Source of the DNA: a virus
Lineage: Duplodnaviria > Heunggongvirae > Uroviricota > Caudoviricetes
IMG/VR virus record: IMGVR_UViG_2671181100_000008
Location: 1-19,547 of that record
Length of the DNA: 19,547 bases
Direction: 5' to 3' (one strand)
Part shown: positions 1-18,515 of the stretch, piece by piece
Layout of the letters: each line of letters opens with the position of its first letter
How positions within the stretch are numbered: position 1 is the first letter of the stretch
The notes under the pieces: generated by a model
What the model was told of the DNA's origin: nothing
What the model saw: only the letters and a program-made list of their open reading frames with translations
Database searches by the model: none
Translations under genes and position numbers: made by a program

Positions 1-411
1 ATGCCTGCCCCCGTCGTCCTGATCCTTGCGGCCGGGCGTGGAGAGCGCTTTCTCGCCTCCGGGGGAAATACCCATAAGTGTATCGGCTGGCGTCAGTCCC
101 CGGAGGTTGCGCCTTATCGCTGGCCATTTGAAGAAAACGGGAGAACTTTCGACCTTGCGATTGAACCGCAGATTACGACTAATGATCTGCGTCTGATGTT
201 GAGGCTGGCTCTTGCCGGCGGAGGAATAACAATTGCCACTCAGGAAACTTTCAGGCCATATATTGAAAGCGGTAAGCTTGTATCGCTGCTTGATGACTTT
301 CTTCCACAATTTCCGGGCTTCTATCTGTATTTCCCACAGCGTCGCAATATTGCACCAAAGCTCCGCGCCCTGATTGACTACGTCAAAGAATGGCGGCAGC
401 AATTGGCTTAA
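1..411 (+). CDS. LysR-family transcriptional regulator, C-terminal fragment (5' end lies outside window)
   Basis: ORF open from base 1 in frame 1, stop TAA 409-411; translation resembles the C-terminal substrate-binding region of LysR-type regulators; GC-rich host-like composition contrasting with the AT-rich DNA that follows. Confidence 0.6.
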   Translation: MPAPVVLILAAGRGERFLASGGNTHKCIGWRQSPEVAPYRWPFEENGRTFDLAIEPQITTNDLRLMLRLALAGGGITIATQETFRPYIESGKLVSLLDDFLPQFPGFYLYFPQRRNIAPKLRALIDYVKEWRQQLA

Positions 412-535
412 ATGTCTGCACCTGCACTGCCTGATGTCAGAACAGTATTTTGATGAATTGCCAAGGTTACAATGGCACAAATACGGCACAGGAGGAAACG
501 TGGTGTATTTAAATATGGGGTAACTCTTTGATTTT

Positions 536-554
536 AATGGTGCGATAATAGGAG
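536..554. repeat. att core-like repeat: imperfect copy (one-base deletion) of the tRNA-Thr 3' end found at 12397-12416
   Basis: aatggtgcgataataggag at 536-554 versus aatggtgccgataataggag at 12397-12416, same orientation; proposed left boundary of the integrative element. Confidence 0.5.
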
Positions 555-613
555 CAAATCATAAAAACCAACCAATTGATTTATATGAATAAAAAAATTA
601 AAACATTATTAGG

Positions 614-633
614 TACCCCCAAAAGTACCCCCA
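614..633. repeat. Tandem TACCCCCA motif pair (possible arm-type recombinase binding sites), left end of element
   Basis: tacccccaaaagtaccccca at 614-633 matches tacccccataagtaccccca at 12265-12284 at 19 of 20 positions, same orientation, each just inside one end of the element. Confidence 0.4.
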
Positions 634-849
634 GATTTTCTTGTTGCCATCTAAATTGTTTAAAAAACATTCTATTGATGTTGATACCACAATTTAAGAA
701 CTGCCTTGAAGCATATCAAGTTAGCTAGACGTCAAAATGGCACTCTGGGAATTTGTGTTTTAGGCCCAACCTTAGTGATGTTTGCCGTACAGCTCCCTTT
801 ATGGTCATCCTATGGTAAAGTTAAGCTCCCTTCGAAAGGAGACCCCCAA

Positions 850-1977
850 ATGACGATAACAGCCTATTCTAGAAAATTTAAGCGTGAACTGGATGCTAAG
901 CAGTTGGAAAACCTTTTCGAACGTAGCAACTCAGATCCTTCTTTAAGTTTTAGAGATTTTGTTAAAGAGGATGTTGAATGCCCGGCATGCAATGTTTCTG
1001 GTGGTTATTACGTTTCGGAAGGAAGATCGCTCAGTAACGGCAAAGTTGTAAAGCAAGCACACTTTGCATTTCGAGACAATCTAGGTAAAGACTCTCACCT
1101 CCCATTTTGTGATTTTTATACTGGAGATGATAAGTTGAACGTTGTTTCAAATGAAGGCCGAATTGATTTTATGCGCTCGGGTTCTGAAGCGACACGCTTA
1201 ATAGGTCTTATGGTCTGCGCGGGAATTCAGGAGAAGATTTTTACGCAAGAAGATATACGTAACATGCGCCAATGGTTCTTAGATTTAAGAGAAAAAGGCA
1301 CTTTTACATTTAATTTAAGCCCTCACATAATTTACCTTGCAAAGGCCTCATTGATTAGATACAAGAGAAACTATGATAATTATGTTGTCGATCTCAGCGC
1401 CACAAACAAAAGTTGGTTCGACATCAATGAGGAAGTATATCAATCCCTTTATTTCAAGTACCCTCAATTCTATCTAAACCGTAATGAGAATCCTGAACTT
1501 TGGAATGTAAGGCTTAAATCAGTAGTCAAAAAAGCAAGAACTATAGTAATTAAAGACTCTGGAACATCAACATTTGACAGATCAATTCTCAACGAAAAAT
1601 ATGAGATAGCTACTCAAATGGCAAGACTGATTCGAGACTACCACCCTCGACTCCGTATGATTATTAGTTACACACCAACATCTATCAAAGCAAACAACCC
1701 ACTCATGGCTTTATCTGCATTATTATTACATGTTTCCGATTGGAATATTCAGGAAAGTTGTAAAAAAATCCAAGCAATTTTAGCAGTTGAGAAAGTTGAC
1801 GATAATTCTGCAGGAAACATTATTGGATTAAACCCATTCATTCACCATAGCGCTTGGATTCTTGTTAAAGCTTTAAACGACTTACATTCTAATTTAGACA
1901 AAGAAATTGATTTTGATAAAGCATTCAACGAAGAAAAAGAGAGGCTCATGAAAATTTACTATCCAAATGGTCAATAA
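850..1977 (+). CDS. Hypothetical protein (375 aa), putative partner of the downstream SIR2-like protein
   Basis: ATG at 850 preceded by AAGGAG (836-841) with 8-nt spacing; stop TAA 1975-1977; the ORF-track start at 706 is a TTG without an RBS. AT-rich. No domain recognisable by eye; one CPAC motif. Confidence 0.7.
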   Translation: MTITAYSRKFKRELDAKQLENLFERSNSDPSLSFRDFVKEDVECPACNVSGGYYVSEGRSLSNGKVVKQAHFAFRDNLGKDSHLPFCDFYTGDDKLNVVSNEGRIDFMRSGSEATRLIGLMVCAGIQEKIFTQEDIRNMRQWFLDLREKGTFTFNLSPHIIYLAKASLIRYKRNYDNYVVDLSATNKSWFDINEEVYQSLYFKYPQFYLNRNENPELWNVRLKSVVKKARTIVIKDSGTSTFDRSILNEKYEIATQMARLIRDYHPRLRMIISYTPTSIKANNPLMALSALLLHVSDWNIQESCKKIQAILAVEKVDDNSAGNIIGLNPFIHHSAWILVKALNDLHSNLDKEIDFDKAFNEEKERLMKIYYPNGQ

Positions 1978-2068
1978 CAAGTAAATTCTTATCTCTACAG
2001 ATAAATACATACTTGAGCTGTGTTCTAACAAATTTTAATGATTACCACTAATATATCTCGGGGGTCAA

Positions 2069-3568
2069 ATGAATATAACGGATTTTCTAAAAGGCTACAG
2101 AAACCATCCAATATTATTTGTTGGAGCAGGTTTCAGCATGAGATACTTATCAATTTCTTATAGCTGGCCGGCACTCTTAGAGAAAATTAGTATTGACCTG
2201 ACAAACTCTAATGAACTATATAAAGATCTTGTCAGAGAAAACAGTAATAAAGATGGTATTATAGACCTTCCAAAAGTGGCAACGCAATTAGAGCAAATAT
2301 TTGATGCAACACTTAAAGCAGATAGGAATGGAAAGTTCAAAAATATCAATGACTTATACTACAGCTCGGAAGATACCTCCTCAAATATTAGCAGATTTAA
2401 AATCTATCTTTCACAGTTAGTGAATATCACAGATTTAAAATTAGGAGTTCAAGATGAAATATCTGAATTAGTAAAAGCCTCCAAAAATATTGCCTCTGTG
2501 ATTACAACAAACTATGATAATTTTATCGAAAGTGCAATTGGTTATAACCCTGTAATTGGGAATGATATACTTTTAAGCAATCCTTATGGTTCTGTTTATA
2601 AAATTCACGGATGCGTTAGCAAACCAGAATCCATAATAATAACTGGTGATGACTATGTTCATTTTGATAAAAAATATGAGTTGATTCGTGCTCAACTCCT
2701 ATCCTTATTTATACATAACCCGATTATATTTATGGGGTATAGAATAGGTGACCCTAATATTAAAAAAGTATTAAAAACAATATTTTCATACATACCACCT
2801 CGTTCTAAAATTGCAGAAAAAATAAAAAACAACTTCCTTCTGATTGAAAGAGAAGAAGGCATTGATAATTTAAACGTTGTCTCTCACGATCTCGAAGTAG
2901 AAGATGCTGGGTTAATTAGCATTAATAAAATCGTTACAGATAACTTCTCAGACATATATAAAGAACTTGCTCAACTGCACTTACCAGTTTCGGTAATGGA
3001 TATACGCAGAGCAGAGAGTGTCTTTGGTAAAATAAAGGAAGGCGGAGACATAAAAGTAAAACTTGTTGGGGATTTGGACACGCTCAGAAATGATGAACTT
3101 GTTCTAGCCGTCGGTTCTGTTAACTCTATAAAAATACACATGCAAACACCTCAGGAGATGATGGAAAACTATTTTGATCTAATTTCAAATCAGGAGTCGC
3201 ATGTTGTCGAGTTGCTTGACAAGTTCACCATCAATAAAAGATCATATTTCCCAGCTTATGCTTTTCATAAATTCAGTCCAGGTGTTAAATGCTTAACATC
3301 ATTAATGAAAAATCAAAAAAGATTAATAGCGTCAAACTATGCTAGGTTACCCAAGAATCAAAGAATAGTAGAACACACCATTGAAGATATTTACGCTAAA
3401 CATTCAGATATTGATAGCAAATTACAAAATATTATTTTCTTCAATGCTCATGATGGACATATATCCTTGGAAGATTTAGAAAAACATGTCCGAGAATTTA
3501 AGGACAAGTCTCATACTGATTATCGCAAACTTTTAGCATTGTATGATTACCTCGCACACAATGTATAA
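2069..3568 (+). CDS. SIR2-like domain protein (499 aa): N-terminal SIR2_2-type putative NADase domain, C-terminal half unassigned
   Basis: Motifs seen in translation: ILFVGAGFS (res 15-23), ITTNYD (145-150, Asn148 codon 2510-2512), KIHGC (His180 codon 2606-2608), FMGYRIGD. Same strand as and 91 bp downstream of the 375-aa gene; AT-rich. Confidence 0.8.
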   Translation: MNITDFLKGYRNHPILFVGAGFSMRYLSISYSWPALLEKISIDLTNSNELYKDLVRENSNKDGIIDLPKVATQLEQIFDATLKADRNGKFKNINDLYYSSEDTSSNISRFKIYLSQLVNITDLKLGVQDEISELVKASKNIASVITTNYDNFIESAIGYNPVIGNDILLSNPYGSVYKIHGCVSKPESIIITGDDYVHFDKKYELIRAQLLSLFIHNPIIFMGYRIGDPNIKKVLKTIFSYIPPRSKIAEKIKNNFLLIEREEGIDNLNVVSHDLEVEDAGLISINKIVTDNFSDIYKELAQLHLPVSVMDIRRAESVFGKIKEGGDIKVKLVGDLDTLRNDELVLAVGSVNSIKIHMQTPQEMMENYFDLISNQESHVVELLDKFTINKRSYFPAYAFHKFSPGVKCLTSLMKNQKRLIASNYARLPKNQRIVEHTIEDIYAKHSDIDSKLQNIIFFNAHDGHISLEDLEKHVREFKDKSHTDYRKLLALYDYLAHNV

Positions 3569-3694
3569 TTATATACATTATCATTGTGATTATAGTTAGC
3601 AAAACTGCAACTGATGGTTTTATACGATTACTAGTTGCAGCCGCAGTTTACAGATCACATCAACTGTAACTTAGAGCGTTTAGAGCCAAAAATT

Positions 3695-3715
3695 CCCGCT
3701 GGTATAGCCAGCGGG
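3695..3715. terminator. GC-rich hairpin between convergent operons, candidate bidirectional terminator
   Basis: cccgctgg (3695-3702) pairs with ccagcggg (3708-3715) around a short loop; an A-run lies before it and gttttg after it on the plus strand, so a T-run follows on either strand. Confidence 0.4.
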
Positions 3716-4011
3716 TGACAGGTTTTGACTGATGCAACCAACGAGCTGTACCTGAAGTTTTCTAAAGGGGGAGAGGTTGTCACTTTCCCCCTGGTTTTCC
3801 CTAGTAAGGCATAACAAACCATAACAGGCTGACACCTGCGCTGCTTCGCATCAGGACTAACAAAAGCTAACCGCCGGGCTCAACAAAGCTCAACGCAAGC
3901 CCTTTACACTTCTGCTCTAGCTGCTGTTCGCAGGCGTCAGGATCCGTTAGGTTGGGTTGACACTTTTCCCAGTTTCTCGCGAAAAAGTGTCAAGTTTGAG
4001 GGCTGGGGGGT

Positions 4012-4509
4012 TTACAGTTTTTCGCCGTCCAGCAGGCAGAGTGACATTAAACCAGTTTTGTTCCAGTCATCCAGCGTATCGGGGTGCATTGTGGCAACGT
4101 AAGCCAGCTCAGAACGAAGAAACCGTAAAGCGCCTGCTGCACGGTCTTTGCCATAGAAGCTGTGGGTTTCTTCATCCGGCCGGAAGAGAATCAGCAATTG
4201 TTCATCGGACTCGTGCTGAACATCAAAACCCAGCTCAGCGGCTGCTGCCTCTATTCGCTGGCCAGCATTAATATCAGCCGGCAGCTCTTTCCCGCCGTCA
4301 TGCCCCCATACCCACGCGGCGGCCTGCGCCCACGTCATTGCATTGTGATGATCACCAGCACCAGCACCAGCAGAATTTTGCTTCGCCTGTGTTGCTTCAA
4401 CATCCACTTTATCGCCTGATAGCACAATCTCACCACGTGCTATCCAGCCGTAAACTGTTTGTCGGCTAACGCCCATATGCCTGGCGTAGGCTGATTTACT
4501 TAACAGCAT
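4012..4509 (-). CDS. HTH DNA-binding protein (165 aa), possibly terminase-small-subunit-like or packaging-redirecting
   Basis: ATG at 4509 with GGAGGG RBS upstream on the minus strand; N-terminus MLLSKSAYARHMGVSRQTVYGWIARGEI is a typical helix-turn-helix; last gene of the minus-strand operon. Function is inference. Confidence 0.55.
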   Translation of the reverse strand: MLLSKSAYARHMGVSRQTVYGWIARGEIVLSGDKVDVEATQAKQNSAGAGAGDHHNAMTWAQAAAWVWGHDGGKELPADINAGQRIEAAAAELGFDVQHESDEQLLILFRPDEETHSFYGKDRAAGALRFLRSELAYVATMHPDTLDDWNKTGLMSLCLLDGEKL

Positions 4510-4543
4510 CGTGTGTTTCCCTCCGGGCAGAAAAAAGCCGCCA

Positions 4544-5338
4544 TCAGGCGGCCTGTTTCCCATCTTCATCATCTGCTTTACCCTGTCGGGAATTAATTTT
4601 TTCCATACCATCAATGTACTCGGACAGATTCGCCAGCCCGGAGACTCGAGGAGCCACATCGCGAGGGTCGTCATTGCTTCCAAATACCAGATTTGCATAC
4701 CATGTGCGAACAGCGATGATTTGCTGCAGGTTGCGGTTAATGGCTTTTACCAGGTTAGAAACAGATTTGATAACGGCTCCGTTATCTGTGGCGATACGGG
4801 CAAAAGTCAGTCGCTCCAGCTGAGAATCTGTTACGCCTGAGCAAATGGCGTTACCTCGTAGCAGGGCGTCACATAAATCAGTCTGATTCCCGGCATACAT
4901 TGCTACCATCAGCTTTTCTTTCGCAGCTCCATCCAGCGAGCGAAATACATTCCGTAGCTCACTATCTCGCATAAATCCGACAACATCACCCTCGGCCAAC
5001 GGAGCAACTGGGGCCAGTTTGGTCTTAAGATAATTGAGAATATTTTCAGCTTGTTCGCTGATCATCGCCGTACTTCTAGTGAAAGCCGTGAGTGTGTCTC
5101 TATTTGCCGCATCTCTGGCCCGGCGGTTTTTTGCTGCTTCGTTTAAATCCGGATCATTGCGGATAACCTCTACGGCATCGGCTTCCGCCTCAGCTAACAT
5201 TGCCACGGCCCGCAGATCACCAAAAATATTCGTCATCCCTTTAAAAAGAATCGCCATCTGCTCATTAGGCGCAACCACTTCAGAAACGTTATCAGTGATA
5301 GCAATGCTTCTTTGCCCAATTTTAATTTCGTAACTCAC
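4544..5338 (-). CDS. Hypothetical satellite/phage protein (264 aa), GTG start
   Basis: GTG at 5338 preceded by GGAGGT; no in-frame ATG upstream before a stop; start overlaps the stop of the upstream small gene (GTGA overlap at 5335-5338). Confidence 0.6.
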   Translation of the reverse strand: MSYEIKIGQRSIAITDNVSEVVAPNEQMAILFKGMTNIFGDLRAVAMLAEAEADAVEVIRNDPDLNEAAKNRRARDAANRDTLTAFTRSTAMISEQAENILNYLKTKLAPVAPLAEGDVVGFMRDSELRNVFRSLDGAAKEKLMVAMYAGNQTDLCDALLRGNAICSGVTDSQLERLTFARIATDNGAVIKSVSNLVKAINRNLQQIIAVRTWYANLVFGSNDDPRDVAPRVSGLANLSEYIDGMEKINSRQGKADDEDGKQAA

Positions 5339-5508
5339 TGGCTTACCTCCATTCTGGATAGCCCAACATCAAATATTTTTCTCGCCACATCATGGATTGA
5401 TGGTGCGATACCAAACCCGGATTTCTGGCGTTCCTGCTCCTGGATGGCTTTTAATGCCGCAACCTGAGCAGCGCTCAGAAGAACGGGTTTCACGTGTTCC
5501 TTTTTCAT
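5335..5508 (-). CDS. Small hypothetical protein (57 aa)
   Basis: ATG at 5508 with G-rich RBS (AAGGGGG); the longer ORF-track start at 5547 is TTG; translationally coupled to the 264-aa gene. Confidence 0.5.
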   Translation of the reverse strand: MKKEHVKPVLLSAAQVAALKAIQEQERQKSGFGIAPSIHDVARKIFDVGLSRMEVSQ

Positions 5509-5639
5509 GCTTCCCCCTTGGTTATCACATGATAAAAAACGCAACAATCACAATAATCATTGCAAGTAATGAAATGATGGTAATGAAATCGAGGGGATGC
5601 ACAACGTGAAATGAATGGATGCGTTTTAAAGAATTTGCC

Positions 5640-5890
5640 CTCAAGGTATACATGGTGTTCATAAAGGCTATAAATTGCTTATAAAACATAATATTAACCT
5701 ATGAACACCAGCCTACATTTTGGGATTTCAGGTCTACACGGTATACATCATTCTGTTTAATAAACGATCAGATGGTTAATGAGAGAATGAACACCATGTA
5801 CACCCTGTGTATACCTGAAAACAAGGTATACATGGTTTATTGCACTGATTTATATATAAATTATTCTCTCGATGTATACCATGTATACCT
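5640..5890. repeat. Iteron-like cluster of a 12-bp motif GGTATACATGGT in both orientations (putative replication origin or operator)
   Basis: Exact copies at 5645-5656 and 5825-5836 (direct), exact inverted copy at 5878-5889, degenerate copies at 5740-5751 and 5793-5804 (inverted), half-site at 5808-5816; AT-rich spacer immediately downstream of the primase gene. Confidence 0.55.
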
Positions 5891-5911
5891 TTCTCCATAT
5901 TTATCTGAACT

Positions 5912-7675
5912 TCATTCTTTATGACCGGCTACAGGATGCGTCTGAGGTAACCAGTCTTCCGCACTCTCTGAAAGTTCAACGTTGGTCACCATGCCACGGG
6001 CTCTCCGTTCCTTACGGTACTCGTGATTAAACTCCCTCATCGCGCTTTCCATCCCCTCTGCGAATTTATTCAGCGTCAGCGGCTTGTCGAAACCGTTGGC
6101 CTCCAGGAATGCCAGGTAAGCGTGATAGAGATAAATTCGCGGATAGTGAGGCGGATTGCGGTTTCCTACCATCATTCCCGCACAATCAGCCAGCCGCTCA
6201 AGATGCGCGCAGAAGGCATAAAGCGGATCCGTTTTCTGCTTCACCTCCAGTGCTTCTTCGCTGTTCCGTTGCTCCAGCAGCAGCGCCCGCGCTTTTTCCG
6301 GGTTCGCAAAGTTCGCCAGCAGCCGACGAACCACCACCGGAATTTCAGCGGATATCTTTTCTGCCAGGTCGGGATCTTTATCCTCCTCGCTGACGCGCCG
6401 GTTAAACTGGAAAATTACGCGTCGCCGGGAAACGCCGCCGGCACGTTCGGTGAAAATCATCGGCGTGTTGTTCGTGGCCACAACCACCGCCCGCAAAACG
6501 GCGGTGTACTGGTGCTCGTGTTTCGGGTCGATCTCCACGGCATCCCCGCCGGTTATCGCTTTTATCCCGGTACCCTCTCCTGAATATTTGGGCTGATCAG
6601 GAAGCGTTATCATGCTTTTCCCGACGAACTGCGCCCGCCCGCGCGCGCTGTCGAGCGCCGCCATGTTCCCGCTGGCGGTGTTATGCGCACCGGCCAGCAT
6701 CGTAGCGATATGGGTAAAGACACTTTTCCCGCTACCGCCATCACCGGTTATCTCGAGGAACAGCTGCCAGTCGTACCGGTTCGCCAGCACCATAAAGAGC
6801 GCTGCAGCGATGCGCTGCATCTTAATTGCGTCTCTATCTGATGCGTAACTTAGCCATTTATGGAAGTTCGGCGCGTGGTCGCGGAGGTTTTCGCCCGGTA
6901 CCGCTGGCGTGTAGGTCACGCCGTTATGATTGGTTAGCCAGTTGTCCTGGCTGTGTTCGGAGAAAATGCCGGTTTCCATATCGTAGACACCGTTTGCAAA
7001 GGGGATCAGGCTCCGCCGCGGCTCCCCCATCACCGGGATAACGATTTTCAGGGCGTCGATAACGTTGTTGATCGCGCGCTTGCTGAAGTTGGTTTTGTTC
7101 TCGTTGTAGATAGCCACCATTTCGCGGCTCAGCTCGAGCATAGACGTTTTCTCCCAAATGCCGGCGCGGTAGACGTACACGCCCTCGCTGTTTTCGTTGA
7201 TTGCAATGCCGGTGTAACGCGCGGCCAGTATGAGCGCCTTTTCGTTATCAGCCAGGTCGCGGAGGTTTACATCCGTCAGCGGTTTGCCGATCACCATACT
7301 TTTGCCGGCTTCCGCATCGGCTTTGAGGCGCGGCAGCTGCGGCGTCCAGTCCTCCAGAAGCTGATAACCTTCAGAGTAGAATTGCGCGCGCTCCACGCCG
7401 GCCACCGCCAGCTTTGTCGCGAGAATGGTTATCTGCCGTTCGGTCAGATGCCCGCCGCGGCAAACCCGGGCATAGAGCCGGCCATCATCAACAATGCGGA
7501 TATTCTCCAGCTCCGCCAGCTGCTTTTTATCCAGCACAACCGGCGGCACCGTGTCGCCAATCGGGTTCATTTCCTGCCATGCTTTGGCGAACGTCCAGGC
7601 ATCGGCGCCGGCAAAGATGATTGACTCCTCCATGAGATCCGCCGGCTGCTTTTTAAGGTTTGGTGCATTCTTCAT
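5912..7675 (-). CDS. Primase/helicase-like replication protein (P4 alpha / D5-type C-terminal NTPase family), 587 aa
   Basis: Walker A-like GDGGSGKS in translation; size and context typical of satellite/PICI pri-rep genes; ATG at 7675 overlaps the stop of the upstream gene (ATGA). Confidence 0.8.
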   Translation of the reverse strand: MKNAPNLKKQPADLMEESIIFAGADAWTFAKAWQEMNPIGDTVPPVVLDKKQLAELENIRIVDDGRLYARVCRGGHLTERQITILATKLAVAGVERAQFYSEGYQLLEDWTPQLPRLKADAEAGKSMVIGKPLTDVNLRDLADNEKALILAARYTGIAINENSEGVYVYRAGIWEKTSMLELSREMVAIYNENKTNFSKRAINNVIDALKIVIPVMGEPRRSLIPFANGVYDMETGIFSEHSQDNWLTNHNGVTYTPAVPGENLRDHAPNFHKWLSYASDRDAIKMQRIAAALFMVLANRYDWQLFLEITGDGGSGKSVFTHIATMLAGAHNTASGNMAALDSARGRAQFVGKSMITLPDQPKYSGEGTGIKAITGGDAVEIDPKHEHQYTAVLRAVVVATNNTPMIFTERAGGVSRRRVIFQFNRRVSEEDKDPDLAEKISAEIPVVVRRLLANFANPEKARALLLEQRNSEEALEVKQKTDPLYAFCAHLERLADCAGMMVGNRNPPHYPRIYLYHAYLAFLEANGFDKPLTLNKFAEGMESAMREFNHEYRKERRARGMVTNVELSESAEDWLPQTHPVAGHKE

Positions 7676-7986
7676 TTTCTGTTCCCTCGCTCCCTGATGA
7701 TTTCCCGCATGACACGAATTCGCTCGATGCCCTGTACCCGCATAATCCGATCGATATCTTTTTCGCCGGCGACCGGCGCGGAAGAAACAAATTCAAATTC
7801 CCGCACCAGTCTTTCTGGCGTGCAAAAACACGGTGAGCTGTACCCCTCGCGGCAATATGTCACTCTGTCGAATCGGTAACTTTCGATAATTACGATGCTG
7901 CCCCGGCTGTCCTTCCATTTATCGCCCGGCCTGATTTCAGGGTGAGCGCGGCCACCAGCAGCTAAGCCGGAAATTTTAATCGTCAT
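7672..7986 (-). CDS. Hypothetical protein (104 aa), replication operon
   Basis: ATG at 7986 with GAGGT RBS; stop overlaps the primase start. Confidence 0.55.
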   Translation of the reverse strand: MTIKISGLAAGGRAHPEIRPGDKWKDSRGSIVIIESYRFDRVTYCREGYSSPCFCTPERLVREFEFVSSAPVAGEKDIDRIMRVQGIERIRVMREIIRERGNRK

Positions 7987-7996
7987 ATTTTTTACC

Positions 7997-8200
7997 TCAC
8001 GCCGCTGGCGGGATTACCTGATAACCAATCTTCTTCAGAAAGCGCGCGGCACTCTCCACCGTGAAAAGGATCTCGTCGTCCATAAGGGGGCGCATCGACT
8101 GCAACCCGTTCGACGTGTCCACCAGATAGCGGCCGCCGGCCGGAAAACTGAATACAGTTTTGCCATCGCTACAGCGCACCAGATTATAAATAGCGGTCAT
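7997..8200 (-). CDS. Hypothetical protein (67 aa)
   Basis: ATG at 8200 with GGGAGG RBS; ATGA overlap with the upstream gene stop. Confidence 0.5.
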   Translation of the reverse strand: MTAIYNLVRCSDGKTVFSFPAGGRYLVDTSNGLQSMRPLMDDEILFTVESAARFLKKIGYQVIPPAA

Positions 8201-8412
8201 GGTCTGACCTCCCTGACTTTCACCAGATATTCCGATGCCTGACTGACCAGGCTGTGAACCGCCGCGACACGAAAGCTTTCCATTTCATCATCCGGCGCCA
8301 GGGTGTTTATCCACATATCGAGAACGGCAAGCGCCTGACGGCTGTATTCAAGCGCCTGGCCTGCGCTGGTCGTCAGCATGGCAATGGATTCGTTTTGAGT
8401 TGGCTTTGTCAT
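8197..8412 (-). CDS. Hypothetical protein (71 aa)
   Basis: ATG at 8412; ATGA overlap with the stop of the recombinase-like gene. Confidence 0.5.
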   Translation of the reverse strand: MTKPTQNESIAMLTTSAGQALEYSRQALAVLDMWINTLAPDDEMESFRVAAVHSLVSQASEYLVKVREVRP

Positions 8413-9284
8413 GCATTCACCTCCATAGCGAGGCGTGTCTGGATAGCCGCGGCCTTGCTCCCCAGCTGGAGATAAGTCCGGGTGATTGCCGGGTTACTGT
8501 GTCCGAGCATTTCAGAGGCGACCAGCAAGCCCTGTTCGCCGCCGGCGGACATGAGATTAAAGGCGGCAATTTTGCGGCTGGAATAGGCGCTCAGGCGCAG
8601 ACGCGTGTTTACTACGCGGGTAAACCACACCATGACGTTGTGCAGTTTCTTCCAGATCGTCTGACGGCTAACGCTACCTTCCAGAGACTGGCAACGGTTA
8701 CTTTCAATCTGGCTGCGGGAAAATACCAGGTCGTCACCGATAAGATTGCGCTCCATGCGTTCCCGCAGTCGTTTGATGATGCCCGGCGGCAGCTGTTTGG
8801 TGTCGTGCTTCACTTCAGCCTTTGCCACCAGCTCAAACACAATCGCCTGTTCTTCTTCCGTCATGCCGGCGGCCAGCTCGTCGCAGCTCACGCTATCCCA
8901 GTGCATGTACCCAATGTGATCGCCAGCAAGCCGGGCAGCGTCCTTGCGCTGCTGGCGAACAATCTCGATCCCCTTCCGGGTCGCTCTGGCTTCCGCTGCT
9001 TTGGTCTGCTTCGCCACGATGATTGTTGCAATGCCGGTTTCCCAGTTGATGCAGGAGTAACGGAAGTTGCACACGTCGCTGGTACGCCAGCCGGTTACGG
9101 TCGCAATATCCCACCAGAGTAAAACCCACTCCGGCTGGGTCTGCTGGATGCGTTCGCGCAGTTTGCGCTGCTCTTCCCGTTCGTAAACGGGGGTCATGGT
9201 GCGGGTGCCTTTCGTGGTAGTGGCTTTTACCACGTTGCCGCGCAGCTCGCGGGCTTTAGCTGTCAGGGTCTGGAGGTTAAACAT
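8409..9284 (-). CDS. Tyrosine recombinase-like protein (291 aa) embedded in the replication operon
   Basis: Internal ATG at 9284 with GGGAGGT RBS (the 517-aa ORF-track extension has no support); C-terminal LGHSNPAITRTYLQ matches the tyrosine-recombinase box II pattern; candidate box I Arg in TGWRTSDV. Confidence 0.65.
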   Translation of the reverse strand: MFNLQTLTAKARELRGNVVKATTTKGTRTMTPVYEREEQRKLRERIQQTQPEWVLLWWDIATVTGWRTSDVCNFRYSCINWETGIATIIVAKQTKAAEARATRKGIEIVRQQRKDAARLAGDHIGYMHWDSVSCDELAAGMTEEEQAIVFELVAKAEVKHDTKQLPPGIIKRLRERMERNLIGDDLVFSRSQIESNRCQSLEGSVSRQTIWKKLHNVMVWFTRVVNTRLRLSAYSSRKIAAFNLMSAGGEQGLLVASEMLGHSNPAITRTYLQLGSKAAAIQTRLAMEVNA

Positions 9285-9522
9285 GGCTACCTCCCAGTTT
9301 CGCAACATCCAGTTCAAACGCGCCGCTACTGTATTGATAAAGCGAACATTCAGAGCGAATTTTGGCGGCAAAGATAAGATCCCAGCGGGAATAAAACTCG
9401 CGGGCTTCTTGCTCACTGTCGGCAACGATGCGGATAACAACGGGAGTACAGGTCCGGCCTTTCGGCGTACCGAGGAAAAGCCAGGTGAATTTGGGCAGTT
9501 TTTGGGTTGGGGTAGTAGCCAT
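9277..9522 (-). CDS. Hypothetical protein (81 aa), first gene of the replication operon
   Basis: ATG at 9522 with GGAGG RBS at 8-nt spacing; 3' end overlaps the recombinase-like start by 8 nt. Confidence 0.5.
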   Translation of the reverse strand: MATTPTQKLPKFTWLFLGTPKGRTCTPVVIRIVADSEQEAREFYSRWDLIFAAKIRSECSLYQYSSGAFELDVAKLGGSHV

Positions 9523-9724
9523 GTGGCAGCCTCCATACAGTGGTCTAGATAACCACCACCGGAAACGCCAATTTCACTGGTGGTGGACTGAGCAGGGTTG
9601 GCGTAACCGGACTGTATGGACTCCGGCGCGGATTTCTCCGCCCCCACCCAGCCCACCATAATTTTGCTAGCAGAGCGGTTTTGAACCACAACGCGTGAAA
9701 ATAGGTGAGACGGATCAACGGCAC

Positions 9725-9746
9725 AAAAAAAGACGCTTGGCGCGTC
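9725..9746 (-). terminator. Rho-independent terminator on the minus strand, downstream of alpA
   Basis: Minus strand reads GACGC-GCCAA-GCGTC followed by seven T (plus-strand A-run 9725-9731, stem 9732-9736 and 9742-9746). Confidence 0.5.
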
Positions 9747-9993
9747 ATGTGTCGCCATACAGTCATTCAGGACGCCAATCCTGACACCAGATTTTGCTGG
9801 TGCTTTTAAAGCATACCCTTCAGTTGAATAACAAGGCAAGGAGTTTTTAGGGTGAGCGAAGCCCTGCCCCAGACGGGCATAATTGTTCTTCATGGCATTA
9901 ACCTTTTTGAATTTTTTAGTGAGCTGTCGCGACGAACTTATTCTGCGAGATCTGAAGTGCAAACTCTCGCAAATTATCTCAGCTCACGGAATC

Positions 9994-10191
9994 TCAGTTC
10001 GTTTGGCTGCGTGACGATTCAATGCGCTCACTAATCCATTCATCAATTTCGCTTTCAATGAAAGCAATTGCTCGAGAACCAATTTTTATGGATGAGGGGA
10101 AACGTTGCTCAGCCATGAGTCGATAGATCCAAGCCTTGCTATAGCCGGTTCTACGCTGAACTTCAGGTAAGCGGATAAGGGATTGGGACAT
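9994..10191 (-). CDS. alpA: AlpA-family phage transcriptional regulator (65 aa)
   Basis: Translation LIRLPEVQRRTGYSKAWIYRLMAEQRFPSSIKIGSRAIAFIESEIDEWI is the characteristic AlpA HTH; ATG at 10191 with GAGAGGT RBS. Confidence 0.85.
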   Translation of the reverse strand: MSQSLIRLPEVQRRTGYSKAWIYRLMAEQRFPSSIKIGSRAIAFIESEIDEWISERIESSRSQTN

Positions 10192-10358
10192 ATATACCTC
10201 TCGAAGTCTAATGTGGTCTACGAGGTATATTTCAGCAAAAACAAGAGGGGAGTTGTGGAAGTCACAGTAAATCAGTTGGAAGCAGCTCTTCCACGGAAAC
10301 AGAAGTACGGCCAGAAGTTTTAGAACCTGTAGATCGTCTTTTTGGAAATCCTTACGGG

Positions 10359-10949
10359 CTATTTGGAAGCGTACGTGTTCAGAGCTTCATCAATTAGCAT
10401 AGTCAATGCCTTATCAGTCACATCGATGCCATCGCCATGCTCCAATATGATTCTTGAGGCACTTCTGGCAACTTCGGATTTGTTCAATTTCTTACCGCGA
10501 ACATATTTTCCACCCGCTTTTTCAAGCGCAATCGCCATACCAGCGATCAATTTCAAAGCAGTGTCTTTGCCAGCGAACTCGCCCCATACCCCAGGAACAT
10601 GTTCATTAGCATGAGCTGCATTTTCTTCCTCACAGCCATACCATACATCTTCAGCAGATAGCTCTTTGATTGCCCAGGACCAAATATCTTCAGCGTAAAA
10701 CTCAGCGTTGACAAAATTACCGCCGATATCAGTCCAAACAGTTTTCGGGCTTAGCTCTTTGTTAAGAGCCGCTTGAATGATACGAAAATAGCTACAAGCC
10801 ATGTTGTATCTTTCGGGGTCATAACTTTTATCAAATTCTCTTAAGCATGCAAAACGATACACACCGGCCATAGCCATTGCAGCCTGTTCAGCAGTGACCA
10901 CACGTTGTCGGCGAAGATGATGGGGCATGTTGAGGATGTTTTCTCGCAT
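10359..10949 (-). CDS. Hypothetical protein (196 aa) between int and alpA
   Basis: ATG at 10949 with AGGAAG RBS; no domain recognised by eye. Confidence 0.6.
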   Translation of the reverse strand: MRENILNMPHHLRRQRVVTAEQAAMAMAGVYRFACLREFDKSYDPERYNMACSYFRIIQAALNKELSPKTVWTDIGGNFVNAEFYAEDIWSWAIKELSAEDVWYGCEEENAAHANEHVPGVWGEFAGKDTALKLIAGMAIALEKAGGKYVRGKKLNKSEVARSASRIILEHGDGIDVTDKALTMLIDEALNTYASK

Positions 10950-11017
10950 AAAAGCTTCCTGCTAACGATAGTCTACAGAAGTCTACTACTGTCAATTAGC
11001 ACTGTCTATACATACAG

Positions 11018-12232
11018 TTAAGCGCTTTTCCCAAACGTTCCGTGCACTACATTTTCGCCGTTTTCCAACGCCTCCATATAGTCGGCATACCACTGGAGCA
11101 TTTCGCGGCGGCCATCCAGATACTGGGCGTGGTTGTACGTTCCTCGTATAGAGTTTTTGTCGACGTGTGCCAGTTGCGTTTCAATCCACGCGGTGTTGTA
11201 GCCCTGTTCGTGCAGGATGGTACTCATGGTGTGCCGGAAACCGTGCCCGGTGACTTTTCCGTTATAGCCAATCCGCTTGAAGACTTGGTTTATGCTGGCT
11301 TCACTCATTGTTTTCCGCGGATCGTTACGGCCTGGGAACACAAGCGGGTAATTGCCTGTTAGCTCTTGGATCTGACCAATAAGCGTAAGAGCTTGCCTGG
11401 ACAACGGCACCACATGAGGGCGACGCATTTTCATGCGTGAGGCGGGTATTTCCCAGACCGCCTTACTGATATTGATTTCATCCCAAAATGCCCCACGGAG
11501 TTCGCCGGGACGCAATCCGGTGATAATCAGCAGACGAGCAGCCAAAACTACTAACTCGCTTCCTGAATATCCTGACAACGCATTGAAGAAATCAGGCAAT
11601 TCTTTAGGTGTGAGGAAAGGAAAATGATTGGACTCGTGCCCTTGCATCGCGCTGGTGAGATCCGGGGCGGGGTTATACTCAGCTCGACCGGTAACTATTG
11701 CGTAACGGAAAACTTCCCCACAGCGCTGCCTAACTTTTCTTGCCTTTTCGGTAGCGCCGCGCCCCTCAATGCGCCGCAGCACATTCAACAGTTCAAGCGG
11801 TTTGATTTCGGCTATTGGTTTTTTGCCAATGTATGGGAACACATCTTTATTGAAGGCTTCGAGGATGTCTGAAGCATAACCAGCAGACCATTTTTTTAGT
11901 TTGCTGCTGTGCCATTCAAGGGCAATATCTTTGAAGGTGTTGTTTAGCTGAATTTCACGGGCAATCTTCTCCTCCCGTTTCGCTTCCATAGGATCGATAC
12001 CCCCAGCGATACCCCTTTTCGCTTCTTCACGTTTTGCCCGAGCATCGGCCAATGTGACTTCAGGATAGACACCCAGAGCTAACAGCTTCTCTTTGCCGGC
12101 TACACGATATTTGAGCCGCCAGTATTTGCCGCCATTAGGTTTGATAAGGAGATACAGACCGCCACCATCAGCCAGCTTGTAAGGCTTATCTTTAGGTTTA
12201 GCGGCCTCCACCTGCCGGGCGTTAAGTTTCAC
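11018..12232 (-). CDS. int: Site-specific tyrosine integrase, P4 type (404 aa), GTG start
   Basis: N-terminal arm-binding-like region (KLNARQVEAAKPKDKPYKLADGGGLYLLIKPNGGKYWRLKYR) and C-terminal catalytic region (HGFRHT, NHAQYLD); GTG at 12232 preceded by AAGGAGG and an in-frame stop; adjacent to the tRNA-derived att sequence. Confidence 0.9.
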   Translation of the reverse strand: MKLNARQVEAAKPKDKPYKLADGGGLYLLIKPNGGKYWRLKYRVAGKEKLLALGVYPEVTLADARAKREEAKRGIAGGIDPMEAKREEKIAREIQLNNTFKDIALEWHSSKLKKWSAGYASDILEAFNKDVFPYIGKKPIAEIKPLELLNVLRRIEGRGATEKARKVRQRCGEVFRYAIVTGRAEYNPAPDLTSAMQGHESNHFPFLTPKELPDFFNALSGYSGSELVVLAARLLIITGLRPGELRGAFWDEINISKAVWEIPASRMKMRRPHVVPLSRQALTLIGQIQELTGNYPLVFPGRNDPRKTMSEASINQVFKRIGYNGKVTGHGFRHTMSTILHEQGYNTAWIETQLAHVDKNSIRGTYNHAQYLDGRREMLQWYADYMEALENGENVVHGTFGKSA

Positions 12233-12296
12233 TTGGGGGTACCTCCTTTAGACCGAACAGCATATACCCCCATAAGTACCCCCAAACGACCGTAGA

Positions 12297-12381
12297 TTTC
12301 AGGGAACTGTAGTAGACGTAGAAATACCAAAAGGGGCTGTAAAGCGCAGATTATAAGGGGTTTCAGTGAACTTTAGTAGAC
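12297..12381. repeat. Two 21-bp direct repeats (12297-12317 and 12361-12381) between int and the att core
   Basis: tttcagggaactgtagtagac versus tttcagtgaactttagtagac, 19 of 21 identical; the embedded 9-mer gtagtagac recurs inverted at 10981-10989. Confidence 0.45.
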
Positions 12382-12398
12382 TTGGGGAGACGTTAGAA

Positions 12399-12444
12399 TG
12401 GTGCCGATAATAGGAGTCGAACCTACGACCTTCGCATTACGAAT
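12399..12444 (-). tRNA. Partial tRNA-Thr (anticodon CGU, thrW-like): 3' 46 nt only, from anticodon loop to CCA; serves as att site
   Basis: Minus strand reads ATTCGTAATGCGAAGGTCGTAGGTTCGACTCCTATTATCGGCACCA with a T-arm (GGTTCGACTCC), acceptor 3' strand, discriminator and CCA; the expected 5' half is absent from 12445 onward. Identity with thrW is from memory. Confidence 0.7.
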
Positions 12445-13191
12445 TATAAGAATCCGCTTCTAATTCAAAGTATTACCCCATCAACACTGTGCTCACACGT
12501 CCCACCACATCAAAACATGTAAAGCCTTGCAAGCCATTGTGAGGCCTTATGTGTCTCAGTTTTGTCCCACCTTGTATTATGACTTGCATAGCCAATGAAG
12601 ATAAACGTGACGACAAACAGCGCAGCAGTCTTCTTTTCTTTCACACTTTCCCCAATCAGCATACATACTTTCTACCATAACTGTAGTGAATGTCTGTTAT
12701 GAGCGAGCAAAAGAGATTCAATTACCGGGGAATTACTCCGACATAAGCTCTCCCAGAAACACCGGAACAGCGATTCGCATATTCTCTTCTATACTTTCAG
12801 TCTGACCGGCTGGAGATTTCATAGCAAGAAAATGGATGCGCCAAGACCTATGCGGGAAAGAGGCTGAGGAAATAATTGCCGATAGCACTGTGCCCGACGA
12901 AAAGTTAATCTGGCACGCAATGACGCGCGTCCTTGGGGCATCAGGAATCAGAGAGCCAACTTAACAACCCATTACATATTATTTAACCGGACTGTTACAT
13001 GTACAAAGTTCAATGATTAGTGATTCTGTGACGCCACATACAACCTAAGCCCCTGATATAAAACCAGTCTATGCAACACCTAAAAATCATATATGATAGG
13101 GTGATAAGTCAACGCGCAGTATAAAAATTAAGCTAAAAAATGCTTTCAGCATAGTGAATCTATTTCACACTACATAATTAAGGATGAAAAA

Positions 13192-14037
13192 ATGACTGCA
13201 CCAGTAATTAGTTTTATCAATATGAAAGGTGGGGTTGGTAAAACAACTTTATGCGTTGGGATTGCTGAGTTTTTAGCCAACCATATGGGGCGCAAGGTTC
13301 TAGTTATCGATATTGATCCTCAATTTAATGCCACTCAGTCCTTAATGGGGCATTATGATCGAGTAGAAGAATATATGACTGCCCTTCGCCCTAATAATCA
13401 AACCATTCGAAAGATTTTTGAGCTTCCAAATTCATTAATGGAAGATGAAAAGAAAGTGACACCAGAACAGGTCATTACTAAAGTTTCAGACAATCTTGAT
13501 ATTATCTTAGGTGATATAAACATTATCTTTGATACTAACCAAGAGGGTATTAGAATAAAAATGTTGCGTAAATTCATCACCGAAAATGACTTAAAAGAAA
13601 GTTACGACTATATCTTTATCGATAGCCCCCCAACAATCTCATTATTTACAGATACCGCACTCCTTGCTTCTGATTATTATCTTACTCCGGTTAAAATTGA
13701 TCACTACTCGGTGCTTGGAGCAAGCAGTTTAAATAGCGTTATAAGAAATATGCGCACACATCATGAGAAAGAAATCAAGCAAGTCGGTTACATTTATACA
13801 AACACTGATGCTGAAATGACCAATAAAACAAGGGAAATTAAAGAACAATTCGAAAACCATACTCAATTTACAAATTTTTATTTCTTTGAAAATCAATTAA
13901 CCTACGTGCGTGATTTAATGGTAGGTTATCAAGGAAATATTCCTTCTTGTTATTCAAAGTCACGCCAAGATATAGAAAAGATCTGTAACGAATTTATTAA
14001 CAGAGTGGCTCACTTGGAAGGTAACACAAATGAATAA
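13192..14037 (+). CDS. ParA/MinD-like P-loop ATPase (281 aa)
   Basis: Deviant Walker A KGGVGKTT near the N-terminus (FINMKGGVGKTTL); AAGGA RBS 7 nt before the ATG; very AT-rich. Confidence 0.8.
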   Translation: MTAPVISFINMKGGVGKTTLCVGIAEFLANHMGRKVLVIDIDPQFNATQSLMGHYDRVEEYMTALRPNNQTIRKIFELPNSLMEDEKKVTPEQVITKVSDNLDIILGDINIIFDTNQEGIRIKMLRKFITENDLKESYDYIFIDSPPTISLFTDTALLASDYYLTPVKIDHYSVLGASSLNSVIRNMRTHHEKEIKQVGYIYTNTDAEMTNKTREIKEQFENHTQFTNFYFFENQLTYVRDLMVGYQGNIPSCYSKSRQDIEKICNEFINRVAHLEGNTNE

Positions 14038-14428
14038 ACAATTAATTAAAGCGCTCAATAAAGCTAATAATATGCCCATGACCAAAGAAAACTTCTTAGG
14101 CTTGGTAATTATGTTGATTCTTTCAAAAGAGGTTTTTAGATCAAATTTTGATGTTAGTAAATTTATTAACAAAACCTTCAAAATATCTTTTTTGAATTAT
14201 GCTGTACGGTCAAGAACTTTGATGTGCGCTAAAATTTGCAGACATATTAATGAATTAAGTGAGAATGACATAAAGATGGCTTATACGCATTTCTTAAACA
14301 ACATTAACACATTAGACATTATTTTTAATGATGCAAATAAAACAAGCCAAAAATCCACATCTAAAAGCAAGCATGCTATAAGGAATTTAAATATTTGGAT
14401 TAATGCAAATAAAAAGGAAGAAGAATAA
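14030..14428 (+). CDS. Hypothetical protein (132 aa), coupled to the ParA-like gene
   Basis: ATG at 14030 overlaps the ParA-like 3' end by 8 nt; GGAAGG RBS; AT-rich, Asn/Lys-rich. Confidence 0.6.
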   Translation: MNKQLIKALNKANNMPMTKENFLGLVIMLILSKEVFRSNFDVSKFINKTFKISFLNYAVRSRTLMCAKICRHINELSENDIKMAYTHFLNNINTLDIIFNDANKTSQKSTSKSKHAIRNLNIWINANKKEEE

Positions 14429-15093
14429 TGCTCACGCAGGATCCCTTCAACATTGGAAGAGATGTAAATTATTTTAGAGCGGAGGTGCAAAAGCACCTCA
14501 GAACCACTGATGAAATAAACAAATCAGTATCAATATTTAGGCAAATAAGTCTTTGTAATACAATTTTAAGTCACAATCCTAATCTAAATCACTCTTCTTA
14601 TATAAAAGGTTTTATATATGATACCTTAAACTCCTTAATTGCCATTATAAAAAAAAGAGAACGGTATCTCCAACTGAACTTCCGCTCAATGGTGGAGCAT
14701 GTGGCCAGAATAAGCCTCAATAAGAACTACAATGGTGGGGATTTTGACCAAACTGTACGTCGTAGAGACTTTGACTTCTTAAAAGCCCAACAAGTCGATG
14801 AAGGCTGGTCTTATTTACATAATGTCTATATCAACGCCTGTTATTATGTTCACTCCTCCCCCCAAGCGAACCTAAATGTTACATCAACATTTATATCACT
14901 TATGGAGGGAGATTGTAATTCAACACAGCATAAAATGGTGAAAAAACTTCATGAGGTAGTATCGGCGCTGATGAGAATCATTATAAAGTATTATCATCAG
15001 CATATCTCAAACATTTTCTTTAGAAACAAAAAGGATTTAGAGAAAATAATGGGAAAAAGCCTTTATTCATATTATACCAGCTTAGACAATTAA
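14428..15093 (+). CDS. Hypothetical protein (221 aa), third gene of the ParA-like operon
   Basis: ATG at 14428 overlaps the upstream stop (TAATG); AAGGAAG RBS; no assignable domain. Confidence 0.6.
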   Translation: MLTQDPFNIGRDVNYFRAEVQKHLRTTDEINKSVSIFRQISLCNTILSHNPNLNHSSYIKGFIYDTLNSLIAIIKKRERYLQLNFRSMVEHVARISLNKNYNGGDFDQTVRRRDFDFLKAQQVDEGWSYLHNVYINACYYVHSSPQANLNVTSTFISLMEGDCNSTQHKMVKKLHEVVSALMRIIIKYYHQHISNIFFRNKKDLEKIMGKSLYSYYTSLDN

Positions 15094-15130
15094 TTCTCTC
15101 ATATTCATTGCGTAGAGCATAAATATCTAT

Positions 15131-15627: not shown

Positions 15628-16023
15628 CAGTTTAAACGCCTTGAACCGTCATATTACCTAAGTACAATCCGCTGTGACTGGCAATCATTCAATACTTGCA
15701 CTATCAAAAGTGCATCAGCCAACCGCAGCACGTCTTGCATACGACCTGTCTGCGGTTTCAATCACCTCTCACCACCAGTCCCATCAATAATAATTAAACA
15801 GCGCCTAAACAAAATAAATAACAACAAGTCAACAACCTCGACAGGATGCCGATGGGATGATGAAGAGATAAGAAAGAATAACTAGTAAAGCCCTAAAACG
15901 TCAGCGTTCAGACGCGTTTTTTACTTAACCGGTAACAAATACGTTGTATCATAGCAACATAAAATGATTGTTCTAAATCAGATTAACTCCTCACTTTTGT
16001 ACAATGTCGCTTACAGGTATACC

Positions 16024-17913: not shown

Positions 17914-17935
17914 TGCAATTAATAAAATGATTATA

Positions 17936-18511: not shown

Positions 18512-18515
18512 GCCA

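Follow-up and report, generated by a model that had tools for sequence, protein, structure and literature searches.

Phage-inducible chromosomal islands (PICIs) of Gram-negative bacteria are built to a plan of four zones: Integration, Bro with its C4/isrK immunity RNAs, Replication (Primase/DUF5906 plus origin) and Late (PMC10111431). Their prototype, EcCICFT073, shows the plan as a unidirectional series int-alpA-Bro-pri-rep-ori-late-accessory of about 12 kb (PMC6092414). EcCIMP1, a PICI of E. coli MP1, lies in thrW between proA and yagU and has core repeats TCCTATTATC; its boundaries have been confirmed by circular-junction sequencing, and its excision, circularisation and transduction need the helper phage Kapi1 together with its own int and alpA (PMC11773190). 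The DNA considered here, called the window below, is a stretch of 19,547 nt (IMG/VR record IMGVR_UViG_2671181100_000008, positions 1 to 19,547). It is E. coli chromosome, and it holds an element of 11.86 kb between two copies of a tRNA-Thr 3' end. By gene plan and kinship this interval is probably a PICI of the enterobacterial thrW-integrating clade, its dependence on a phage being argued by analogy.

The element fits the four-zone plan, down to the C4/isrK RNAs between the integration and replication zones. Its int, alpA and pri-rep genes stand in the conserved PICI order, all on the minus strand and transcribed away from int, and all of the backbone genes are co-oriented. The complete order is int, a gene for a 196-aa protein, alpA, isrK/C4, icd, a recombinase gene, small genes, a DUF4222 gene, pri-rep, iterons, genes for proteins of 57, 264 and 165 aa, a non-coding tail and the cargo. 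Scans with Pfam, PHROGs and NCBIfam found no capsid, tail, portal or lysis genes among the open reading frames (ORFs) of the element, and 11.86 kb free of structural and lysis genes fits the size criterion for Gram-negative PICIs (~12–15 kb). PICI accessory genes have two usual places, one separating int from the regulator gene and one past the position of terS (PMC10085698); the accessory genes here occupy the same positions, the int–alpA slot and beyond the position of terS. The contents listed in the original prediction (a P4-type integrase, alpA, a primase/helicase operon with iterons, and cargo) were all recovered by domain and repeat searches. The integrase belongs to the PICI integrase clade: it is 90.3% identical to EcCIMP1 Int (404/404 aa), with the same att core and arms, and shares 96% identity with its counterpart in Pseudocitrobacter faecalis, 93.5% with that of BCE049 and 42% with that of P4. 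AlpA is 80% identical to EcCIMP1 AlpA over 41 aa.

The replication zone has the architecture expected of the family. Over residues 133–579 Pri-Rep shares 44% identity with P4 alpha, whose helicase and C-terminal part it matches, and domain searches found no TOPRIM domain in the protein. Directly 3' of pri-rep, in a 400-bp AT-rich spacer, lie the iterons: 8 of the 12 window matches to ATGTATACC (at most one mismatch) fall within 5645–5889, as do all five of the exact copies in the window. An iteron origin 3' of pri-rep has been described for Gram-negative PICIs (PMC6092414).

The ends of the element are defined by a repeat and by an empty site. The gapped pattern AATGGTGC(N0-1)GATAATAGGAG has two matches in the whole window, 536–554 and 12397–12416, both on the plus strand, and it was matched in 0 of 200 shuffles; the repeats lie exactly where the original prediction had put them and are the only copies in the window. 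The same prediction proposed a comparison with related strains lacking the element, and E. coli KMi006 (NZ_CP091691) is such a natural empty site. Both flanks are present there at 100%, gattttAATGGTGCCGATAATAGGAGtcgaacc is uninterrupted, and the junction runs straight through gattttAATGGTGCCGATAATAGGAGtcgaacctacgacc.... The site is precise to the base: the DNA absent from KMi006 comes to 19547 − 7686 = 11,861 bp, which is also 12397 − 536, the repeat-to-repeat distance. This bears out the proposal of a discrete integrative unit of ~11.9 kb between tRNA-Thr 3'-end repeats; as a unit with one att copy, the element is about 555–12416, or 11.86 kb. A low-GC module at 850–3568 is missing from KMi006 along with the backbone and therefore belongs to the element. 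The arrangement named beforehand as damaging to the proposal, this module beside core genes in a genome without the element, was not encountered, module and backbone being jointly absent in KMi006; the relics of the module that lack the backbone (MP1, CFT073) adjoin an integrase stump and an att copy.

On the minus strand, 12400–12446 reads ATTCGTAATGCGAAGGTCGTAGGTTCGACTCCTATTATCGGCACCA and matches the 3' 46 nt of tRNA-Thr(CGU)/thrW, as judged against the intact thrW of BCE049, of Pseudocitrobacter faecalis and of the EcCIMP1 locus (GenBank OR778291). Beyond 12446 the sequence upstream of this fragment bears no relation to a tRNA, and ARAGORN found no tRNA gene in the window, so that 12400–12446 is a pseudo-tRNA fragment. 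The repeats do match the 3' end of a tRNA-Thr gene, as had been claimed, but what stands in the window is a 46-nt pseudo-tRNA and not a gene.

The distal att is the reverse complement of CTCCTATTATC-GCACCATT and has a single G in place of the GG of the tRNA (...ATCGGCACCATT). This one-base deletion had been read as a sign of age or decay, a reading that must be given up: the mobile EcCIMP1 has this single-G form, TCCTATTATC-GCACCATT, as its distal att, and so has the Pseudocitrobacter faecalis relative at an intact thrW, the backbone ORFs are intact, and the copy of the element in strain MIN12 is 100% identical. Because the same variant recurs in EcCIMP1 and Pseudocitrobacter faecalis, the imperfection is most likely a property of the attP of the family and not the result of wear. 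At the same spot of the att, a Mangrovibacter relative has a 4-nt gap and the BCE049 relative a 5-nt gap. The distal copy, attR, descends on the left from attP and on the right from attB, and its single G, set against the GG of the proximal copy, suggests that Int crosses over to the right of the single G, within the GCACCATT part of the att core. The predicted attP junction of the element contains ...ATGATTTGCTCCTATTATCGCACCATTCTAACGTCTCC....

The two arms are also alike in the family. The motif TACCCCCA occurs six times in the window against 0.33 expected, and five of the six copies lie in the arms of the element; the motif pair is kept at both ends of EcCIMP1. The int-proximal arm, in which a 21-nt direct repeat, TTTCAGnGAACTnTAGTAGAC, is found twice (12297–12317 and 12361–12381), is conserved in the BCE049 and EcCIMP1 loci. 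Arm motifs and 21-nt repeats are plausible candidates for arm-type Int binding sites.

The likeness to EcCIMP1 takes in the thrW site, an Int of the same length at 90.3% identity, AlpA at 80%, the att core with its single-G distal variant, the TACCCCCA arms and the order int-alpA-ash/isrK/C4-icd-small genes-primase-conserved small protein. EcCIMP1 differs in its size of 20 kb and in its primase, which is of the TOPRIM/DUF927 type; it also encodes an AntA/B antirepressor, PerC regulators, a further AlpA and ejection proteins of the P22 type, and its helper Kapi1 is a P22-like phage. In the window element, of 11.9 kb, Pri-Rep is of the D5/DUF5906 type, there is a second tyrosine recombinase, the late region is another one, and the cargo consists of a SIR2 protein and a 375-aa protein. 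The BCE049 PICI, also at thrW, has the closely similar Int (93.5%), the same cargo in the same slot and an int-alpA-ash/C4-icd-DUF4222-primase layout, whereas its backbone is EcCIMP1-like (DUF927 primase, AntA/B, ProQ, PerC), it stands at thrW proper, and a lambdoid prophage lies distal to it. With Gram-negative PICIs as published, EcCICFT073 being the prototype, the element shares the unidirectional plan and a size of about 12 kb, but it differs from them in an att shared with a prophage and in having no lambda-type cos, no recognisable Rpp, no capsid-morphogenesis gene and no clear TerS gene. Membership of the capsid-forming PICIs (cfPICIs) was considered and rejected, as no capsid, portal, protease, head-tail connector or terL genes were detected; the primase of the cfPICI-like vB_KppS-Ant is 47% identical to that of the element.

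Table 1. Features of the thrW element, in window coordinates unless another locus is named
Feature	Position	Strand	Remarks
Distal att copy (attR)	536..554	.	AATGGTGC-GATAATAGGAG, equal to AATGGTGCGATAATAGGAG; variant also in EcCIMP1 and Pseudocitrobacter faecalis
Distal arm	555..700	.	two TACCCCCA arm-type motifs at 614-633
Cargo gene 1, 375-aa protein	850..1977	+	phrog_12525; low-GC DNA
Cargo gene 2, 499-aa SIR2_2 protein	2069..3568	+	SIR2_2 E 3e-22; phrog_2695
Conserved non-coding tail of backbone operon	3640..4011	-	~370 nt; terminator-like hairpin 3715-3695
165-aa DNA-binding protein (predicted), N-terminal excisionase/MerR-type winged helix	4012..4509	-	at PICI terS position
264-aa all-helical protein (predicted)	4544..5338	-	most divergent backbone gene
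57-aa protein downstream of origin	5335..5508	-	conserved in related elements; 52% identity in EcCIMP1
Origin-like iteron field	5645..5889	.	8 ATGTATACC copies (<=1 mismatch), both orientations, around AT-rich DNA
Pri-Rep, 587 aa	5912..7675	-	D5_N, DUF5906, Pox_D5 domains
DUF4222 protein, 104 aa	7672..7986	-	domain search
Two small genes, 67 and 71 aa	7997..8412	-	phrog_340, phrog_2196
Second tyrosine-recombinase-like protein, 291 aa	8409..9284	-	start overlaps icd end
Icd-like protein, 81 aa	9277..9522	-	NF033153, E 3.5e-18
C4-type antisense (immunity) RNA	9576..9663	-	RF01695, 75 bits vs gathering 45
isrK-type RNA	9726..9803	-	RF01394, 70.8 bits vs gathering 50
c4-a1b1 target family, sub-threshold match overlapping isrK	9764..9816	-	RF03163, 38.9 bits vs 46.7
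AlpA, 65 aa, presumed master activator	9994..10191	-	PF05930, E 2.5e-19
196-aa protein in int-alpA accessory slot	10359..10949	-	44-73% identity among relatives; absent from EcCIMP1
Integrase, 404 aa, P4-type	11018..12232	-	Arm-DNA-bind_3, Phage_int_M, Phage_integrase domains
int-proximal arm	12234..12396	.	three TACCCCCA motifs at 12234-12284
Proximal att copy	12397..12416		AATGGTGCCGATAATAGGAG; inside 46-47 nt 3' fragment of tRNA-Thr(CGU)
vat-island relic segments	MP1 L023 1593-1693, 8073-8718; CFT073 L004 6001-6101		match window 1044-1144, 3453-3597, 11894-12415

The chromosomal setting explains why a tRNA fragment, and not a tRNA gene, is found at the proximal end. The window matches NDM2 (NZ_CP083886, a blood isolate) and one other genome over its full length at 100%. 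In the annotation of NDM2 the left flank holds paoD and a LysR pseudogene, yagP' (window 73–411), and the right flank is a lambdoid prophage. In NDM2 the true thrW is found next to proA, 42 kb further right, and between it and the pseudo-tRNA there is a complete lambda-like prophage, its int abutting thrW, with head, tail and lysis genes and a perfect lambda cosN; the pseudo-tRNA at 12400–12446 is therefore the attR of this prophage. The locus is found in three states: thrW-element-yagP' without the prophage in MIN12, where the identical element stands at an intact thrW; thrW-prophage-pseudo-tRNA-yagP' without the element in KMi006; and the two side by side in the strain of the window as well as in strain 10, EC25 and MB07152. 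BCE049 has the reverse order, thrW-PICI-prophage. The tandem state may have come about either by insertion of the element into the pseudo-tRNA or by insertion of the phage at thrW upstream of a resident element.

The 264-aa protein exists as two alleles, 53–56% identical, on backbones whose primases are 98% identical, and only 17 homologues were found in 5.8 billion proteins. It has no match in Pfam, PHROG, PADLOC, NCBIfam, PDB sequences or phage tblastn, and its AlphaFold model (mean predicted local distance difference test, pLDDT, 74) gave generic helical-bundle matches only, with no PDB fold match and no resemblance to the P4 Sid scaffold. One possible role is that of a fast-evolving contact with a helper phage. 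The 165-aa protein shows weak similarity to TerS, to phrog_57 at E 1e-6 over the N-terminus only and to the TerS of phages BZS1 and phiNP at 31% identity over about 103–105 aa (E 1e-5), and none to the Nu1-like TerS of the neighbouring prophage. In fold searches of PDB and BFVD its model (pLDDT 82) matches the excisionase/MerR-type helix-turn-helix (HTH) only, and no TerS oligomerisation domain is supported. For the terS/capsid-morphogenesis part of the SatelliteFinder PICI core set (PMC10085698), the 165-aa protein thus supplies a weak TerS match and the 264-aa protein no match.

Following the 165-aa gene, a non-coding stretch of ~170 nt (3840–4011) is near-invariant in four elements that are otherwise 78–88% identical, and within it lies an 11-bp perfect inverted repeat, TTGACACTTTT...AAAAGTGTCAA. 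Near-invariance among otherwise diverged elements, taken with the inverted repeat, points to a candidate cis-acting site, for packaging or for regulation. A search of 50,697 phage records turned up nothing that matches it. A hijack of the lambda cos of the neighbouring prophage was also considered and set aside, since the cosN of the prophage is perfect but the element has no convincing copy of it within 2 mismatches; nor was a P2/P4 cos found in the element with up to 5 mismatches allowed.

Several of these observations weigh against the assignment to the PICIs. No recognisable packaging function was established in the element, which has neither a lambda cosN nor a P2/P4 cos, and sequence and fold searches found no recognisable capsid-size gene; the 165-aa protein is only weakly similar to TerS, fold searches backing the HTH domain alone. 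When IMG/VR was scanned for the predicted attP junction, five contigs were recovered, all of them tandem or deleted/decayed remnants, and no circular copy. A complete lambdoid prophage stands at thrW in both the window strain and BCE049, contrary to the classical PICI rule that prophages never occupy the att; the rule is evidently not absolute, as EcCIMP1, an accepted PICI, uses the same thrW site. Insertion of the prophage upstream of a resident island can account for the three locus states with no movement of the PICI. The element is rare in E. coli, and its 12 carriers could be one clone. Finally, excision, replication and packaging of this particular element are predictions from its homology with EcCIMP1.

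Much of this would suit a site-specific island that does not, or does not any longer, depend on a phage, either a self-replicating defence island that moves by some other route or an immobilised relic that is present in some strains and absent from others because prophages inserted, and homologous DNA was exchanged, at the thrW hotspot. We regard this as unlikely. In its favour are the facts that no packaging or capsid function was identified, that IMG/VR holds no circular form, that the element is rare in E. coli and that its relatives often decay (backbone deletions keeping the att, an int stump and the cargo end are seen in MP1 and at two other loci, L036 and L040). The backbone ORFs are nevertheless all intact and full length against relatives at 77–98% identity, and so are both att copies and the arm motifs; Int and AlpA of EcCIMP1, 90% and 80% identical to those here, have been shown by experiment to be needed when a helper induces excision and transduction; the presence of the backbone in several genera, and with two different integrases, implies that it has moved horizontally in recent times; and no relaxase or oriT-type genes appear among the family matches of the window proteins.

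A P4-like satellite would bring with it a helper of the P2 family, a P2-type cos, redirection of capsid size by Sid/Psu and control of the helper by Delta/Epsilon. P4 (NC_001609) does resemble the element in its homologous Int (42%), in AlpA/Vis (30%), in its alpha-type helicase (44% to Pri-Rep over the helicase and C-terminal part), in a C4/CI-type immunity RNA upstream of the replication genes, in integration at the 3' end of a tRNA and in its annotated attP arm repeats. The sid-delta-psu operon, epsilon and the P2-type cos of P4 are lacking, however: tblastn of P4 Sid, Delta, Psu and Epsilon against the window gave nothing (best E 0.69), there is no Pfam match to Psu or Ogr/Delta, and the element contains no P2/P4 cos. 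The TOPRIM primase domain that alpha has is missing from Pri-Rep, and the unidirectional int-alpA-Bro-replication-late order is the PICI plan and not the differing layout of P4. We therefore hold a P4-like satellite to be very improbable. The original prediction had offered P4-like and PICI-like satellites side by side; the PICI half is upheld by the gene plan and the kinship with EcCIMP1, and the P4 half falls with the absence of sid, delta, psu, epsilon and a P2/P4 cos. That the repeats match by chance and enclose no unit is next to negligible: at 19–20 nt they are short, but none of the 200 shuffles reproduced them, the empty site is precise to the base, and the family is known to use this repeat as its att core. 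A PICI of the thrW clade is accordingly the reading followed in what remains.

The control region between alpA and the replication genes has wider connections. The isrK and C4 region is annotated as an 'ash family' pseudogene, and C4/isrK RNAs are also found in EcCIMP1, BCE049, Pseudocitrobacter faecalis, Escherichia sp. ESNIH1 and locus L008. The isrK/C4 stretch at 9554–9800 has 82% DNA identity to a stretch of many Stx-converting and other lambdoid phages, where it is unannotated or called hypothetical. An Rfam int-alpA RNA (RF02996) lies between int and alpA in BCE049 (L003 26677-26744) and Mangrovibacter (L014 5863-5930); it was not detected in the window, where the gene for the 196-aa protein occupies the int–alpA interval. 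The second recombinase keeps Arg, Arg, His and the Tyr nucleophile, with the first His replaced by Tyr. Its gene lies downstream of the C4 RNA, at the position where P1 has ant, and it travels with the primase under unrelated integrases (L008, L019, L020; Buttiauxella, Pantoea).

Fillol-Salom et al. and Rousset et al., both in 2022, are said to have reported that PICIs and P4-like satellites carry defence systems. PMC10085698 likewise establishes defence systems on both. Here the cargo DNA has 31–36% GC and lies on the strand opposite to the backbone. The SIR2 protein matches the PADLOC candidate PDC-S25 at E 6.9e-140 over residues 2–497 of 499. No anti-phage activity of the PDC-S25 family is documented in the literature searched, and an anti-phage role for the SIR2 cargo is a prediction from this family match. 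Thoeris was considered and rejected: the SIR2 core alone matches ThsA (E 4.6e-21, residues 140–304), there is no TIR protein, and the gene beside it could be assigned to no family. About 100 homologues of the 375-aa protein are spread over the Gammaproteobacteria, and in five of five distant contexts (Pseudomonas, Acinetobacter, Shewanella, a Pectobacterium IncFII plasmid and Rahnella) these stand without a SIR2 neighbour. The two genes are thus not an obligate pair, and a reading of them as an obligate two-gene system was rejected.

The same SIR2 and 375-aa proteins (95–97% aa identity) are present in the same distal slot of the BCE049 PICI, on its different backbone; elsewhere the slot holds AbiP2 (Mangrovibacter, L014) or uncharacterised genes (Pseudocitrobacter faecalis and ESNIH1). 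On this comparison the distal slot is an exchangeable cargo slot.

Next to the element, the end of the prophage beside the pseudo-tRNA (12447–18511) is a variable slot for defence and moron genes. It contains ParA with two further genes (13192–15093), umuC/dinI fragments and a DUF262 type IV methyl-directed restriction enzyme (16024–17913; PADLOC mREase_IV, 1439 bits). In the matching locus of EC25, Avs2 is annotated directly beyond the element, and Drt3a/b are among the features listed for the MLI105 match.

When Pri-Rep was used as the query with one genome per species, 17 loci were found. Pseudocitrobacter faecalis has the same backbone at an intact thrW, with 88.6% DNA identity from the att to the non-coding tail and a Pri-Rep at 98%, and Mangrovibacter also has it at thrW. 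In Escherichia sp. ESNIH1 (L007 5236-13953) the backbone stands at tRNA-Gly(CCC), with 83% DNA identity and a primase at 98% but an Int at 62%, which marks it, by sequence, as a swap of the integration module. Among 5,426 complete E. coli genomes the backbone was found in 12 and the cargo in 20. Beyond the distal att of Mangrovibacter (L014 15902-15940) comes 'tcaacttcccc'; its likeness to the int-proximal arm found in the family suggests a tandem at that site, or the remnant of an earlier island.

Decayed relatives are found as well. The vat/MarR island beside yagU in MP1 and in CFT073-type strains looks like a decayed PICI of the thrW family with the same cargo: in it the 3' end of the SIR2 gene abuts a 5' stump of the integrase gene and an att copy. 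Beyond vat and IS1 there is a relic of the 375-aa gene, of 101 nt, that recurs at 94–95% identity in about 550 complete E. coli genomes. Three independent backbone deletions (L036 1-808, L040 11544-12351 and MP1 L023 8073-8718) have kept the att, the 5' stump of int and the late/cargo end; in window coordinates, and in that order, their endpoints are 4311|12101, 4050|11967 and 3597|11893. The pattern suggests recurrent immobilisation of these islands in which the cargo side is retained.

The sequences themselves show the boundaries, the empty site, the genes and RNAs, the layout of the origin, the kinship and the exchange of cargo between relatives. A life cycle for the element can be proposed by analogy with EcCIMP1 and EcCICFT073; phage dependence, the identity of the helper, the packaging mechanism and the defence function are inferred. 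In the resting state the C4/isrK antisense-RNA module would silence the operon of icd, the recombinase and the replication genes. A lytic helper phage would switch on alpA; AlpA would then activate the rightward operon and, together with Int, excise the island. Pri-Rep would fire the iteron origin just downstream of its own gene, and the late proteins of 57, 264 and 165 aa, with the invariant non-coding site, would divert the packaging of the helper to the island. The island would then reintegrate in tRNA-Thr(CGU), into its 3' end or a copy of this. Of the cargo proteins, SIR2 (PDC-S25 type) would presumably deplete NAD+ on infection, and it and the 375-aa protein would protect host and island from other phages.

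It is conceivable, though we think it doubtful, that the element has a new module for the exploitation of helpers. In such a module the 165-aa protein would act on the 170-nt site to redirect packaging in a manner unrelated to Rpp or to cos hijacking, the 264-aa protein would contact a virion or assembly protein of the helper, and the icd-coupled second recombinase, under the control of the C4 RNA, would process satellite or helper DNA; the 375-aa protein would, in addition, be an anti-phage system of a single gene.

Current concepts of these islands are unchanged by the element. What it adds is a compact and apparently intact member to the small group of PICIs that integrate in thrW, a group with one experimentally studied relative. 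The clade exchanges modules, Int being swapped in the relative at tRNA-Gly, the replication module here being unlike that of EcCIMP1, and the distal slot holding SIR2, AbiP2 or other genes. That the element and a complete lambdoid prophage stand head-to-tail at a single tRNA in the bloodstream isolate NDM2 bears on the stacking of defence genes and prophages at integration hotspots. The vat island beside yagU, which is common in the genomes of extraintestinal pathogenic E. coli, appears to be the remnant of a decayed PICI with the same cargo.

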